64,000 nt of DNA from a virus: positions 1 to 64,000 of IMG/VR virus record IMGVR_UViG_3300025849_000018. One strand, 5' to 3'. The notes beneath the pieces are model-generated. The model made no database searches. It saw only the letters and a program-made list of their open reading frames with translations, and was not told the DNA's origin. Each line of letters begins with the position of its first letter. The first letter of the stretch is position 1. Position numbers and translations under genes: made by a program. This document shows positions 4,241 to 17,476 of this stretch, piece after piece.

Positions 4241-4248
4241 TATTTATA
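4241..4248 (-). promoter_or_regulatory. T4-type late promoter for hsp20
   Basis: TATAAATA immediately before the structured leader. Confidence 0.75.
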
Positions 4249-4275
4249 TATTTACCTTCCTACTTCTTGTAAATA
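4245..4275. repeat. 31-bp exact direct repeat of 4920-4950 (3' end of DUF4338 gene)
   Basis: tatatatttaccttcctacttcttgtaaata at both sites, offset 675. Confidence 0.95.
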
Positions 4276-4299
4276 GATTTCTTCTTCAATGTAACAGTC
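4275..4299. repeat. 25-bp exact copy of 6317-6341 (internal piece of the 69-aa ORF)
   Basis: agatttcttcttcaatgtaacagtc at both sites. Confidence 0.95.
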
Positions 4300-4327
4300 A
4301 GATGCACTACCATTGTGCTACCGAGGA
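4292..4327 (-). pseudogene. 5' half of tRNA-Asn(GUU), truncated after the anticodon
   Basis: TCCTCGG TA GCAC-AATGGTA-GTGC A TCTGA CT GTT A; 3 nt downstream of tRNA-Thr; no 3' half seen. Confidence 0.8.
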
Positions 4328-4330
4328 AGG

Positions 4331-4406
4331 TGGTGCCGCCACAAGGAATCGAACCTTGGACCTGATGCTTACAAGGCAACTGCTCTACCTGCTGAGCTAT
4401 AGCGGC
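4331..4406 (-). tRNA. tRNA-Thr(UGU)
   Basis: 76 nt; GCCGCTA/TGGCGGC acceptor, anticodon loop CT-TGT-AA, GGTTCGATTCC T-arm, encoded CCA; one mismatch in anticodon stem. Confidence 0.93.
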
Positions 4407-4856: not shown

Positions 4857-4923
4857 GCATTTTCTATTACCCTATTTCTTAAACTGGTCGTACTAAAACT
4901 GTGCGATCTCCGATTGAAATATA
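4847..4923. repeat. 77-bp direct repeat of 6484-6560 (3' end of cytidylyltransferase gene)
   Basis: 76/77 identical (4912 g vs 6549 c), offset 1637. Confidence 0.95.
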
Positions 4924-4926
4924 TAT

Positions 4927-6255
4927 TTACCTTCCTACTTCTTGTAAATATTTTTCTTTTGTTTGTTCCCAGTCCATAAAGATCAGATCGTCATAGTAAA
5001 GCGTTTCGTCAGATACACGATCATTCTTAATGAGACTTTTAATACGTTTGCTGGCATACTTATTCTTCCACAACTCCGTCAAATATTCGGTGCTTGTGTC
5101 AAAGAGAGGACGTAATTCAGACTGTTGACATTCTCCTCGCAAAAATTCTCTTGTGTTATCATACAATGGTGAGAAGTAAATACCGCGGGCATGTTCAGCG
5201 CTAATCAAGGTCTTGTCGATGCCAAGTTTACTGTATGTAAAATGATACGACCGGTTACGGTGATCGCGTTTTGCAGGTTGCCCTGATGGTTTGATTGCGC
5301 CATACCACTCGAAGTATTTGTATGTATGGTTTTTGTGCAACCAACTACGCATCAAATACTGTGTTTTTTTGGTCGCTTGATATGCAACACTACCTGAACT
5401 ATAACCCATTTTCTTCCAGTGTTTCAGATTATCATATTGCGATAGGCCACCCTGTTTTGTTTTACCGTAGAGTGAGGTTGTTGTAACTCCAACCAATGTA
5501 TCGCCATACTGACTTTTCCAATCATTCTGTATAGTATCAGACAAACACAGAAGAGCGAGCAACTTACCGCCAACATAGTTAAAACCCAGTGGTTGAGTTG
5601 GCACAATAGTCGAACCAATGGCCGTATAGTTGATCATATGTCCTTGAGTTTTCTTTTCACGTTCCCAACCAATCCACTTGTCACGCGGTGTAAGATCAAG
5701 GAAGTCGGATGATATACAGATCACACCAAGATACGTTTCTGTCACTTCATCAATCACAAGATAGTTTAGATTGCGACCTATGTTCGCTGAGTTTTTCATT
5801 GTCGAGGTAAAGGTACGAATTGCATTCCACTTTTCAGGTGTATTCGTTTTATTTGATGTCAAGATGAGTTTCGGAGTCAGTTTCGCATAACTTTCTAAAT
5901 TATCTGGTCGCCAGATGTTATCTCTCATCTCTTCAACAATCTTTGCGCGAGACGCATCGCAAAGTTGACTTTCAGGACCCCATAAGGTTTGTACTTCCCG
6001 AGTGGGATATTTGATATGCACTTCTTCCCACTTCTGGTAAAGTATATATTCACCGACAGTCATTTGCGACACATGTGCCAAGTCTTTAACGAGAGCATCT
6101 TTTAGCTCTTCATCGGAGACATCTTTTATTTCTTCGGGGGGATTTTTCTTTATCCAGATTTTATATTGATCTTCAATCGGTAGATGTGCATAGTCAGACA
6201 TTCTAACACATTCTTTTTCCGACGAAGCTTCTATACCTAGAAGAGATGTAAACAT
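4927..6255 (-). CDS. DUF4338/DruA-like protein, putative Mom-related GNAT-fold enzyme
   Basis: GRNLNYLV.D...YLGVI, L.PRD.WIGW, P.G.NY.GGKLLALL, DW..QYG..L..VTTTSLYG, W..MG.S.G; start could be 6201. Confidence 0.7.
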   Translation of the reverse strand: MFTSLLGIEASSEKECVRMSDYAHLPIEDQYKIWIKKNPPEEIKDVSDEELKDALVKDLAHVSQMTVGEYILYQKWEEVHIKYPTREVQTLWGPESQLCDASRAKIVEEMRDNIWRPDNLESYAKLTPKLILTSNKTNTPEKWNAIRTFTSTMKNSANIGRNLNYLVIDEVTETYLGVICISSDFLDLTPRDKWIGWEREKKTQGHMINYTAIGSTIVPTQPLGFNYVGGKLLALLCLSDTIQNDWKSQYGDTLVGVTTTSLYGKTKQGGLSQYDNLKHWKKMGYSSGSVAYQATKKTQYLMRSWLHKNHTYKYFEWYGAIKPSGQPAKRDHRNRSYHFTYSKLGIDKTLISAEHARGIYFSPLYDNTREFLRGECQQSELRPLFDTSTEYLTELWKNKYASKRIKSLIKNDRVSDETLYYDDLIFMDWEQTKEKYLQEVGR

Positions 6256-6287: not shown

Positions 6288-6497
6288 TCAGACGTAGTAA
6301 TGCCACGCGGTACTGGAGATTTCTTCTTCAATGTAACAGTCTGCACTAATGTTTTGTTTCGCCCAATGTAGTTCATTGATCATGCGATTATACCACTGCC
6401 GGTCATACTCCGAATGACACTTGGCAGCGTCCTTCTTTAGTTGACTAATCCTCATATCAAGATATTTGGATACATCTGGTTTTCTGTTTCTACGCAT
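6288..6497 (-). CDS. Hypothetical protein (69 aa)
   Basis: Overlaps upstream stop; operon-like spacing. Confidence 0.7.
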   Translation of the reverse strand: MRRNRKPDVSKYLDMRISQLKKDAAKCHSEYDRQWYNRMINELHWAKQNISADCYIEEEISSTAWHYYV

Positions 6498-6927
6498 TTT
6501 CTATTACCCTATTTCTTAAACTGGTCGTACTAAAACTGTGCGATCTCCCATTGAAATATAAATTTATCGATCGTTCTTTACAAATAGATTTGCCTGTGAA
6601 TTCGGTTTTTCTGTATTCTTCACCTAGTATACGAACATTAATAGGCAATGTCAAGAGTAAATCTTCTAAATCTTGTTCGGTGTTATATACTACAACTTCA
6701 TCAACATATTTTACAGCGCTCAGTTGTATCTGTCTCTCGATAATACTCTGTACTGGCTTGTTCTTTGTGTTTGGTCTATCAAATGTTGGATCATTTTGCA
6801 AACCAACAATCAGAAAGTCACATTGACGTTTTGCTTCTTCCAACATAGTGATATGACCTGCATGTAAAAGATCAAACGCAGATGCTGTAAACCCTATTTT
6901 ACCGCAGTCTTTATATTCTAGTTTCAC
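6490..6927 (-). CDS. Cytidylyltransferase (TagD/glycerol-3-phosphate CT-like)
   Basis: FDLLHAGH (HXGH), LIVGLQ.DP, ER..QL.AVKYVDEV, R.H.FSTT. Confidence 0.92.
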   Translation of the reverse strand: MKLEYKDCGKIGFTASAFDLLHAGHITMLEEAKRQCDFLIVGLQNDPTFDRPNTKNKPVQSIIERQIQLSAVKYVDEVVVYNTEQDLEDLLLTLPINVRILGEEYRKTEFTGKSICKERSINLYFNGRSHSFSTTSLRNRVIENA

Positions 6928-7326: not shown

Positions 7327-8571
7327 TTACTCACATATTTGTAAAGTATTGTCTTCAACACCTTCCTTGGACTTGAGAGTGAAATCGTTTTTAAGGAGTG
7401 TCGAATCGGATTGTTCGTTTATTTTACTATAGGTCATCCGTGTTCTGTTCATACTCTCAACCGCATTGGATTTATCAGTACCGTTATTATATATCAATCC
7501 TGATTCTGGATGTTCCCAAGTTATATCCGGAGAACTAAAGAAATTTGTGTCACGGTCAGCATAACTCATAATGCTACCATATCCTTCGAAGTCGGTATCA
7601 ATAGTTTCAGGTATAATCCATCCATACGAGTAATTATACTGTCCGGATTTTCTCGATTGCGGACTATATTGATCGCGGTCGTGCATCATTCCCAAGTTGT
7701 GTCCAACCTCGTGTGAGAATGTAATATTACCTCGATCATCGGGAATGCGATTATCTCTCTGATAACACTGTATGAATCCTTTGCTATACTGTCGTTCCAG
7801 TCGGTTATTGATCCAGGCTGCGCCACAAATTGTTGATGGTCTTGGTTCAGCAAAGATGTATGCCAAGTCAGCGTCATATTCATTCATATCGCTATCGACG
7901 GGTTCATACCAAAGATTTGACTCGTCGGGATCACGAAAGTCTTCGAGAAGTTCTATTACATCTCTTTCTGGATCAATTTCAGTTTCAATGTATGCAATAG
8001 CATTCAGATTGACATAAACACCACTCGCGGCATACAACTTGTTTGCCGCATCAAACTCTCTGTCAATTAACTCCTGATACGAACTTACACCTCTTTTTTC
8101 AAGGTCGAGATTGATGTCAATGTATACCAGAATATCTATTTGTGCAATCTCAGTGCTTTCTGGATTGTAGATGAAATTAATCGGGGTTCGTTGAGGTTGA
8201 CCATCACAATTTATATAGTTGAAGAAATCGTTATCCTCATCAATCACAGTTTTTGAGTATTCGCTCTCACATACTGTCTGTTCTAACCAAAGATTAGGAT
8301 CATCTGGATATACATCCTCTTCGTCATTATATCCATCACCATCGGTATCAGGTATGTAACCACATTCCGTGCTATTTGTTTCTATCAAATTGATTTCAAC
8401 AGTGCCATCACTGTATGTAACTTTCCGCAACAAATCAAATGAATCATCATCACAATACTGTGCATCACTCACAATGGTGACGGGCGCAGGACCGCTTGAC
8501 CCTCCGCCACACGCAACTAAAAAACATAATAAAAAAAGAAAACAATTTTTACTCTTCTGAAAATTGTCCAT
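7327..8571 (-). CDS. Lipoprotein metzincin zinc protease (reprolysin/M12B-like)
   Basis: LVA-CGGGSSG lipobox, TSP3-like DTDGDGYNDEEDVYPDDP, HEVGHNLGMMHD, Met-turn GSIMSY. Confidence 0.88.
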   Translation of the reverse strand: MDNFQKSKNCFLFLLCFLVACGGGSSGPAPVTIVSDAQYCDDDSFDLLRKVTYSDGTVEINLIETNSTECGYIPDTDGDGYNDEEDVYPDDPNLWLEQTVCESEYSKTVIDEDNDFFNYINCDGQPQRTPINFIYNPESTEIAQIDILVYIDINLDLEKRGVSSYQELIDREFDAANKLYAASGVYVNLNAIAYIETEIDPERDVIELLEDFRDPDESNLWYEPVDSDMNEYDADLAYIFAEPRPSTICGAAWINNRLERQYSKGFIQCYQRDNRIPDDRGNITFSHEVGHNLGMMHDRDQYSPQSRKSGQYNYSYGWIIPETIDTDFEGYGSIMSYADRDTNFFSSPDITWEHPESGLIYNNGTDKSNAVESMNRTRMTYSKINEQSDSTLLKNDFTLKSKEGVEDNTLQICE

Positions 8572-11515: not shown

Positions 11516-11814
11516 TTGTTTTTACCGTCTCCACTTGAACTGGTATATAACCCAAACCACGCGGCACCGGTGCCGACAATAATGCTGATCAATCCCGACT
11601 GTTCAATAGTTGGATTTTCGAGGTTCATAAACCACATGGTCGAATAATACAATAAGAAGGTGTATACACCTAGGAAAACTCTGGGAAATATTCTCCAAGC
11701 GTCCACTGCTTTGGCTAAGTCAATCCAATTCTGCCATTGATTCTGGCTACTGTCTACAGTCTTCGTATCAACTTCTAGTTGAATCTGTAATGTCCTTTTT
11801 TCTATATCCGACAT
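11512..11814 (-). CDS. Two-TM phage membrane protein (holin-like topology)
   Basis: DAWRIFPR + TM1, PT.EQSG + TM2 GAAWFGLY. Confidence 0.75.
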   Translation of the reverse strand: MSDIEKRTLQIQLEVDTKTVDSSQNQWQNWIDLAKAVDAWRIFPRVFLGVYTFLLYYSTMWFMNLENPTIEQSGLISIIVGTGAAWFGLYTSSSGDGKNK

Positions 11815-11854
11815 AAGTGACCTTCAAAATTTATTTTTATTGTAATATTTGAAT

Positions 11855-12160
11855 AGGTGCCACACTTTGATAACAAGGCAGTGGCCTCCTCGGAAGATTA
11901 TGCCGCTAGGGCTATATCTCCATAGTAGTTGTCATTTGCAGCAACTATAGTTTTGAACCACCGTTTTTACAGTCAGCGTTCATGGACTGATTCTCCACAT
12001 TGCTTTCGGTTGCCCGTCGATTCCGTAACGCCCCCATCAAAAGTACACTACCCGCTTTATCAGATACGTTCCAGACTTAACTGGAATAGTGTACTTTTGG
12101 TGGAGGCGGCGGGAGTTGAACCCGCGTCCGCACTTCCTATTTACAATGTTTCATCGAATA
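11855..12160 (-). ncRNA. ssrA: Circularly permuted (two-piece) tmRNA, tag ANDNYYGDIALAA
   Basis: Acceptor piece ...GGACGCGGGTTCAACTCCCGCCGCCTCCACCA (CCA ends 12098), intervening hairpin 12036-12097, coding piece starting GGGGGCG at 12035 giving G3.U70; tag ORF 11939-11898; outer ends approximate. Confidence 0.95.
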
Positions 12161-12164
12161 ACTT

Positions 12165-12172
12165 TATTTATA
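12165..12172 (-). promoter_or_regulatory. T4-type late promoter for tmRNA
   Basis: TATAAATA directly upstream of acceptor piece. Confidence 0.75.
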
Positions 12173-12175
12173 GTA

Positions 12176-12628
12176 TTAGAGTTTCATTACTTCATCAGCA
12201 TACACATACTGATATTTATGAGCCTCAACTTCCCAAGGCAGATCAAAATAATCAACCTTCTGCGAATCGATTCGTCGTCCTTTCCAGTTACATACATCCA
12301 ACATTGTTACCAAATCCCGAAGTTCACCTCGGGCATATTGTTTGACATGGATCATCTCATGAACGATCGTGGCAACGAAGTCGCGATTGGACAACTTGGT
12401 GTCCACACGAATCTCGAAATCGCGGGGCAATCTATTCTCACAGTCGATATAGTTACAGTCGCCATGTATACCCTCTCGATCCTCAAGACTTGCGTCACCC
12501 AGTATTTTGACCGACAAAGATTTTGCCATGCGCGGCATCATTTTAGAAACATAAAAATCAATAGTCTCGAATGCCAGTTTCTTCTGTGCCTTTGATAACT
12601 TGCGATATCTTTTTTCGGTCAGTATCAT
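12176..12628 (-). CDS. SprT-like zinc metallopeptidase domain protein
   Basis: T..HEMIHVKQY..GEL and Y.DLPWE.EA motifs; TAATG coupling. Confidence 0.85.
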   Translation of the reverse strand: MILTEKRYRKLSKAQKKLAFETIDFYVSKMMPRMAKSLSVKILGDASLEDREGIHGDCNYIDCENRLPRDFEIRVDTKLSNRDFVATIVHEMIHVKQYARGELRDLVTMLDVCNWKGRRIDSQKVDYFDLPWEVEAHKYQYVYADEVMKL

Positions 12629-17408: not shown

Positions 17409-17476
17409 TGGAGCGGCGCCAAGGAATTTAACCTTGCTAATCTCACTGGACGCGAGATTTGTCACAGACTCGCCGC
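17409..17476 (-). ncRNA. Non-canonical tRNA-Gly(UCC)-like RNA
   Basis: GCGGCG/CGCCGC-U-CCA acceptor, vestigial D arm GTC-TGT-GAC, 7-bp stem with loop CG-TCC-AG, T arm CAAGG-TTAAATT-CCTTG; 68 nt. Confidence 0.75.

Follow-up and report, generated by a model that had tools for sequence, protein, structure and literature searches.

Gene Identification and Predicted Fold

The gene at positions 4927..6255 (minus strand) of the window, the 64,000-nt stretch comprising positions 1 to 64,000 of IMG/VR virus record IMGVR_UViG_3300025849_000018, encodes a protein of the DUF4338/DruA family with a predicted GNAT fold. The best available reading from comparative analysis, although somewhat less likely than not, is that of an orphan acyltransferase directed at nucleic acid, which probably modifies DNA for protection. 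The open reading frame (ORF) was intact, began with ATG and coded for 442 amino acids (aa), its coordinates including the stop codon; start-codon context was taken into account in placing the gene. The protein matched Pfam PF14236 (DruA/DUF4338) over residues 127–374 (E 7.5e-24; score 84.8 bits, cut-off 27), the PADLOC DruA model (E 1e-22) and phrog_19197 (E 4.6e-30), in agreement with the DUF4338-type motifs that an earlier sequence-only reading of the window had pointed out. A Pfam scan of the 442-aa protein gave nothing besides DruA at E ≤ 1, and NCBIfam holds no model for either DruA or Mom. Searches of all PDB sequences with phmmer and with a 104-sequence profile gave no meaningful match; a hit to ribosomal protein L15 (E 0.022) was dismissed as compositional.

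An AlphaFold2 model built from an alignment of 104 diverse homologues had a mean predicted local distance difference test score (pLDDT) of 93.9 and a predicted template modeling score (pTM) of 0.92. Residues ∼121–375 of the model formed the mixed sheet with helices and the splayed strands β4 and β5 that define the GNAT fold, and the predicted fold is regarded as certain. The sequence-only reading had predicted a GNAT fold and had named any other fold as grounds for abandoning its proposal; the model and the structure search together gave a confident GNAT. The acyltransferase core (residues 121–375; 5131..5895, minus strand) carried two insertions, at residues 184–210 and at residues 286–357. 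The latter (5185..5400, minus strand), lying between the last two strands, β6 and β7, was a 72-residue insert of three helices (296–309, 311–319, and 332–343) with a net charge of +9 and an isoelectric point (pI) of 10.05; the family median net charge was +5. Generic GNAT alignments bypassed this insert and stopped at about residues 364–366. The core was preceded by a family-variable domain (residues 24–122; 5890..6186, minus strand) made of three helices, a beta hairpin and a further helix, and was followed by a helical C-terminal region (residues 376–442; 4930..5130, minus strand).

The first 18 residues are possibly not translated. The codon of Met19, at 6201, offers an alternative start that would give a protein of 424 aa. 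Alignments of homologues, most of which were 423 aa long, began at about residues 19–27 of the 442-aa protein, and residues 1–20 had poor pLDDT in the model; Met19 may therefore be the true start.

The record, of which the window is part, belongs to a marine T4-like myophage and is 94.9 kb in length and about 53% complete. The window contained genes for gp43 polymerase, lysozyme, Hsp20, sheath, portal, major head protein, terminase, gp46 and a UvsW-type helicase; of these, the polymerase, sheath, portal, head protein, terminase, gp46 and UvsW genes bear out the earlier description of a T4-like phage. Type I Druantia is recognized by druA lying beside druB–D and a DruE helicase (MZB/DUF1998), and here the neighbors were phage genes. 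When the ten largest ORFs were run through PADLOC, none matched a Druantia model and the output was limited to generic SMC/helicase matches for gp46 and UvsW, and the hallmark domain of DruE, MZB (PF09369), was absent throughout the 94.9-kb, partly complete record. The claim that the window holds no other Druantia genes thus stands.

Conserved Residues and Comparison With Bona Fide DruA

The phage protein, which matched the Pfam and PADLOC models of DruA well above cut-off, was compared with the DruA protein WP_041351085.1 of Nitrosococcus watsonii pNWAT01, which adjoins a 1,849-aa helicase in a complete Druantia operon. The two aligned over the GNAT core and the C-terminal region and were similar in length (442 versus 410 aa). 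Unlike the DruA of type I Druantia, the phage copy was found in a lytic T4-like phage with no druB–E nearby or in the record, and it belonged to a subfamily seen in viral contigs and in contigs of metagenome-assembled genomes (MAGs) from scattered taxa. Identity between phage copies and bona fide DruA was 23–25%, with the catalytic-type residues unchanged. Twelve core residues were invariant across both sets (G160, G177, R191, P222, G229, K231, S261, G264, S272, Y274, G284, and R357), and in the C-terminal region W396 and R404 were likewise retained by bona fide DruA. When the DruA proteins of Nitrosococcus and Meiothermus were aligned with the phage proteins, 19 columns were invariant, including R191, K231, S261, S272, Y274, and R357; such conservation between bona fide DruA and phage proteins suggests, at the sequence level, a family of active enzymes with one chemistry. 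The most conserved part of the family was residues 258–284, the segment TTTSLYG..SQY..L.HW..MG.

These residues also bear on the possibility of an ordinary acyl-CoA-dependent N-acyltransferase (CoA, coenzyme A) that acts on a protein or small molecule, in host takeover or in the inactivation of a defense protein or metabolite, with no DNA chemistry involved. One family member each matched Pfam Acetyltransf_1 (0.004) and Acetyltransf_10 (0.018). The invariant Tyr274 would occupy the Tyr position of GNAT motif B, and the G-G-K at the start of helix α3 would lie at the site of the CoA pyrophosphate, both positions being inferred. The nearest named cluster in the ESM Atlas was PF22559, ‘GNAT-phage-like’, with a sub-threshold score of 0.87 that is a lead only. 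However, the canonical motif A loop before helix α3 (Q/R-x-x-G-x-G/A), which reads Q221-P-L-G224-F-N and then G229-G230-K231 in the phage copies, was not kept in bona fide DruA, where P222 and G-G-K were retained but Q221 and G224 were lost. The conserved basic insert also argues against this alternative, as do the domain fusions described below and the helicase–nuclease context of Druantia, which point to DNA. An ordinary acyltransferase is considered somewhat unlikely.

Evidence Pointing to DNA

Members of the family were fused to domains that point to DNA. ParB_N was joined to DUF4338 in seven scanned representatives, four of them at or above the Pfam cut-off, a domain of the UDG superfamily was joined to it in the protein P0139, and a DUF3102–DUF4338 fusion was also found. 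A DndF–DUF4338 fusion has been reported by Aravind’s group, who called DUF4338 a GNAT domain (PMC10853773). In addition, PacBio sequencing gave an adenine ‘m6A’ signal at CAGCTGNC that was confined to cells carrying type I Druantia, a system with no methylase domain in which the gene behind the mark was not named (Ojima et al., 2024, preprint). Modification of the host genome by type I Druantia is stated again in a preprint of 2026. Type II Druantia has no DruA and requires DruM. The latter is reportedly a methylase. The fusions, the helicase context, the invariant residues, the PacBio signal and the type II DruM, taken together, make a DNA-marking role for DruA a reasonable proposition.

In the proposed mechanism, nucleic acid would be bound in a basic cleft between the GNAT core and the insert, and an activated donor, either an acyl-CoA or an aminoacyl-tRNA, would supply an acyl or aminoacyl group to DNA, probably to a base amine in the phage’s own genome. 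The protein would then count among the orphan ‘modification’ enzymes and protect the phage DNA against host restriction in the manner of Mu Mom and of phage orphan methyltransferases, and it would act alone or with host factors only, with no conserved phage partner. A more far-reaching proposal holds that DruA-type GNATs are a second class of DNA base acyl- or aminoacyl-transferases, unrelated to Mom in sequence. Under this proposal DruA would write the adenine mark of type I Druantia, and orphan copies in marine T4-like phages (pelagiphages and cyanophages) and some giant viruses would install a protective hypermodification that has not been described. Taken as a whole, this larger proposal is unlikely.

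The literature searched reported no function for DruA, and the mechanism of type I Druantia, a system known since 2018, is not known to have been explained. If a DUF4338 GNAT does write the mark, this would explain how type I Druantia discriminates self from non-self, and Mom would be joined by a second class of enzymes able to acylate DNA bases. Very abundant ocean phages would also carry an unknown DNA modification, with effects on the sequencing and the restriction of their DNA. The phage copy, a single gene without partners, is a convenient object for such tests.

Several points weigh against a role in DNA modification. No DUF4338 protein has been the subject of an experimental study. Nucleic acids are much less frequent targets of GNAT acetylation than are proteins or small molecules. 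The N-terminal domain is acidic (pI 4.8) and matched no DNA-binding or other known fold. The study of type I Druantia that found the adenine mark is a preprint, terms the mark methylation and does not implicate DruA (Ojima et al., 2024). Neither sequence nor profile comparison linked the protein to Mom. A BLASTP search with Mu Mom as the target returned nothing, and hhalign of a profile of 104 DUF4338 proteins against one of 35 Mom proteins gave probabilities of 0.14% at full length and 0.21% for trimmed cores, with all values ≤0.21% in local, global and low-mact modes. In structure searches, Foldseek against the PDB returned weak GNAT rows only (E 0.08–0.3) and placed RimI first (E 0.08), above Mom, which was 23rd (E 0.24). 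Mom did rank first among solved chains, and re-alignment of the Foldseek list put it first again (9.7, against 9.3 for SpeG), although ordinary acetyltransferases (SpeG at 9.3, others at 8.9) came within 1 Z unit, a margin counted as a tie. Finally, just 3 of the 201 sampled genomes of Pelagibacterales, the likely hosts, had a DruA-family match, and a specific anti-Druantia role is therefore doubtful.

Relationship to Mom

Mom modifies adenine N6 in double-stranded DNA to N6-carbamoylmethyl-dA, with Gly-tRNA-Gly as donor (Silva et al., 2026, PMC13219725), and the sequence-only reading had named this donor correctly in proposing a Mom-type enzyme. That reading had further proposed a two-part system in which a tRNA-Gly-like RNA of the phage, 68 nt in length, would be the dedicated donor of glycine. 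Among viral predicted structures, the Mom of Salmonella phage FSL SP-031 ranked 12th (E 0.025), behind the family’s own members and six other weak rows. It was the first row with the name of an acyltransferase, and all rows called acetyltransferases came after it. Together with the first rank of Mom among solved chains, this suggests, from models, a special closeness to Mom. The phage protein and Mu Mom (PF25680; PDB 8BV8) share the GNAT fold and a helix-rich insert between the last two strands, and each is the product of a single phage gene without a conserved partner. Mom requires its helix-rich, helix-turn-helix (HTH)-like insert (residues 175–209), and insert 286–357 appears to occupy the same topological place, at 72 residues against 35 in Mom; the correspondence is one of position.

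The resemblance did not extend to sequence. Pfam Mom (PF25680) did not match the protein, and the 25 families listed in a Pfam scan of the 104 homologues did not include it. With the hhalign and BLASTP results, membership of the Mom family thus finds no support in sequence. The parallel drawn earlier between residues 258–284 and the QSFADERCG..GVVYQASNF..IG segment of Mom is visible by eye and falls in the same part of the fold (strand 5, a short link and strand 6), but it was without any support from alignment statistics. In this register Y274 lies near Y159 of Mom, and the last strand, R357-G-I-Y-F, resembles R216-Y-I-R-F. The residues essential to Mom, R111, S124, D149, and R151, fall by motif order only on S/T, G/K, T, and L, with S124 near the invariant G-G-K231, and they had no demonstrable counterparts. 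Unlike Mu Mom, the phage protein is nearly twice as long, has additional N- and C-terminal domains, lacks sequence or profile similarity and recognizable retention of the essential residues, and ties in structural rank with generic GNATs.

Other GNAT-fold enzymes that use charged tRNA were compared as well. FemA and FemX, which are aminoacyl-tRNA-dependent transferases, ranked below many acetyl-CoA enzymes and had no sequence link, and the tandem GNAT architecture of FemA was absent from the phage protein. TacT was among the weak Foldseek rows, which, with the basic surface, would fit a GNAT toxin of the AtaT/TacT type that acetylates charged tRNA and shuts off host translation. TacT, however, ranked far below Mom and generic GNATs, the phage protein is 2.5 times the size of these toxins and there was no antitoxin-like neighbor, leaving a toxin only the slightest of chances.

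The tRNA-Gly-Like RNA

The 68-nt RNA is encoded at 17409–17476 (minus strand), just upstream of gp44 and 11 kb from the DUF4338 gene. It has an acceptor stem of 6–7 bp, a T arm and a 7-nt loop that holds UCC; its CCA is encoded, and a 3-bp mini-hairpin replaces the D arm. Homologues were found in two of the closest relatives, as a full-size tRNA-Gly(UCC) in L004 (2426–2500) and as a tandem pair in L005 (5094–5162 and 5182–5250), at 0.8–3.5 kb upstream of the DUF4338 gene. Among the four copies, 12 of 23 pairs showed compensatory change, with both sides altered and pairing kept. The tRNA(UCC)-like RNA is thus a real, conserved element, although its distance from the gene weakens the proposed link to the enzyme. 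The window and L004 copies have G at the near-universal U33, and both L005 copies have U33. The reduced window copy was called by neither ARAGORN nor Rfam, and ARAGORN called none in L005.

The tRNA beside the gene (4331–4406, minus strand), the sole standard tRNA in the record, was tRNA-Thr(UGU) and was thereby ruled out as a tRNA-Gly. Directly after it, about 30 nt at 4300–4330 (minus strand) resemble the 5′ part of another tRNA, with a D-arm-like GTAGCACAATGGTAGTGC, and were not called by the tools.

Co-occurrence of RNA and gene was rejected. A covariance model found only the same four copies in the window, Pelagibacter phage Mosig and 80 related DUF4338 loci (895 kb), so that the RNA partners the gene just in the window, L004 and L005 and is absent from 78 of the 80 loci. 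Only 2 of the 80 loci had a tRNA called by ARAGORN at 6 kb or less from the gene, and the complete genome of Mosig has the gene and carries only tRNA-Pro, tRNA-Arg and tRNA-Leu, with no tRNA-Gly. Weaker matches in other phages proved to be standard tRNAs, except that one record matched through the tRNA-like portion of a permuted transfer-messenger RNA (tmRNA). T4-like phages commonly carry tRNA-Gly(UCC) for translation. Moreover, all host tRNA-Gly isoacceptors serve Mom (Silva et al., 2026, PMC13219725), hence Mom needs no phage RNA. The two-part idea of RNA and enzyme was consequently not upheld. A strict Mom-type enzyme would be in keeping with the GNAT fold, the rank of Mom, the placement of the insert, and the RNA with its proximity to the gene in L004 and L005; given the profile results, the unmatched essential residues and the distribution of the RNA, such an enzyme is improbable.

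Distribution of the Family

The gene is not new: it belongs, without special distinction, to a family known from Mosig, HTVC008M and cyanophages. The search yielded 3,632 homologues at E ≤ 1e-3 in a collection clustered at 90%, and the DUF4338 family comprised 941 clusters at 50% identity; an identical protein was carried by 25 contigs. The nearest named relatives were in the Pelagibacter phages Mosig (59% identity) and HTVC008M (56%), over 94–95% of the protein, the copy of Mosig EXVC030M (QOI68986.1) being annotated as ‘DUF4338 domain-containing protein’. Twenty-five Synechococcus phage records and one cyanophage record matched at 27–43% identity in the core region. Like the window gene, these pelagiphage and cyanophage copies stand alone. 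The 80 related IMG/VR loci gave near full-length matches at 57–77% identity, and ORF calling recovered a comparable ORF in all of them (median 432 aa). Predicted structures from giant viruses (Faunusvirus, Yasminevirus, and Dasosvirus) matched with Foldseek E 8e-19 to 2e-8. These matches in BFVD (A0A3G4ZXG3, A0A5K0UAJ3, and A0A3G4ZRA1) belong to the Klosneuvirus group, two of them within proteins of more than 1,100 aa. Some phages carried two DUF4338 paralogues per genome or contig, as in HTVC008M (KC465899.1/NC_020484.1) and in G005:C40 (3433–4146 and 10865–11317).

A pattern scan of 185,579 species genomes found phage-type copies on 18 MAG contigs of scattered taxa and in no isolate genome. 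One such contig, from a ‘Pelagibacter’ MAG, also carried a second DruA-family match. In one of the three Pelagibacterales genomes with DruA, the contig that bears it also matched the phage protein at 49% identity. A Verrucomicrobiae MAG (G007) had five DruA-family matches on five separate contigs, suggesting expansion of the family outside Druantia operons.

Earlier names given to phage copies differ. A 2025 paper named ORF152 of Synechococcus phage S-SCSM2R ‘methylcarbamoylase mom’ on the basis of predicted-structure likeness only; in Pfam this protein is DruA, not Mom. The Phold preprint listed six Synechococcus phage copies (S-PRM1 and others) as DruA-like, among defense look-alikes. The latter placement would suit a mimic or defense gene, with the phage copy either imitating host DruA and so poisoning the complexes of type I Druantia, or serving as an exclusion gene directed against competing phages, as would the family and architecture shared with the DruA of the complete Nitrosococcus operon. 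Against such a role, catalytic-type residues that a decoy would not need are strictly conserved, DruA is rare in the sampled Pelagibacterales and no DruB–E partner is present from which a defense system could be built. Phages often carry homologues of defense parts. Even so, a mimic or defense gene is very improbable.

Gene Neighborhood and Other Features of the Window

In relatives the DUF4338 gene usually lies between the genes for peptide deformylase and MazG, downstream of gp46/gp47. In the window its place differs, between a cytidylyltransferase-like gene and Hsp20. No partner gene was conserved, the neighbors tracking local synteny (gp46/47, deformylase, and MazG) and being different in the window. 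Copies of local gene ends flank the gene in the window, which argues that it moves as a single unit. The cytidylyltransferase-like neighbor recurred in 15–19 of 81 loci, sometimes fused to a mannose-6-phosphate isomerase cupin; as a gene of the sugar-nucleotide type, it was rejected as a functional partner and is probably just company in a plastic region.

Downstream of the tRNA-Thr gene, a 55-nt chimera (4245–4299) joins two copies of local sequence. The first part comprises 25 nt of a 69-aa ORF, 100% identical to 6317–6341, and the second, of 39 nt, repeats the 3′ end of the DUF4338 gene (4920–4958) at 95% identity. The chimera has the look of a scar left by recombination, or of the junction in a gene-less variant. 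The C-terminal YLQEVGR of the protein is native to the DUF4338 family, being present in Mosig and P0139.

A weak candidate promoter of the sigma-70 type, TTGACA-17-TATACT (11/12), was located at 6626..6654 (minus strand), about 370 nt upstream of the gene. Promoter-like sites were no more numerous in the region than in shuffled sequences. No T4-type late box TATAAATA was found between the candidate promoter and the gene, and the promoter-like site without a late box gives no more than a hint that the gene is expressed early or at the middle stage.

At 7327–8571 (minus strand), the phage genome encodes a lipoprotein-like zinc metalloprotease of 414 aa, of the reprolysin/M12B type (HEVGHNLG). 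The window also encodes a circularly permuted tmRNA at 11807–12190 (minus strand; Rfam tmRNA_permuted, 94.6 bits), with the tag AANDNYYGDIALAA. A related permuted tmRNA, with the tag ANDDFAPVDYALAA, is present in a second phage record that carries DUF4338 (L089).

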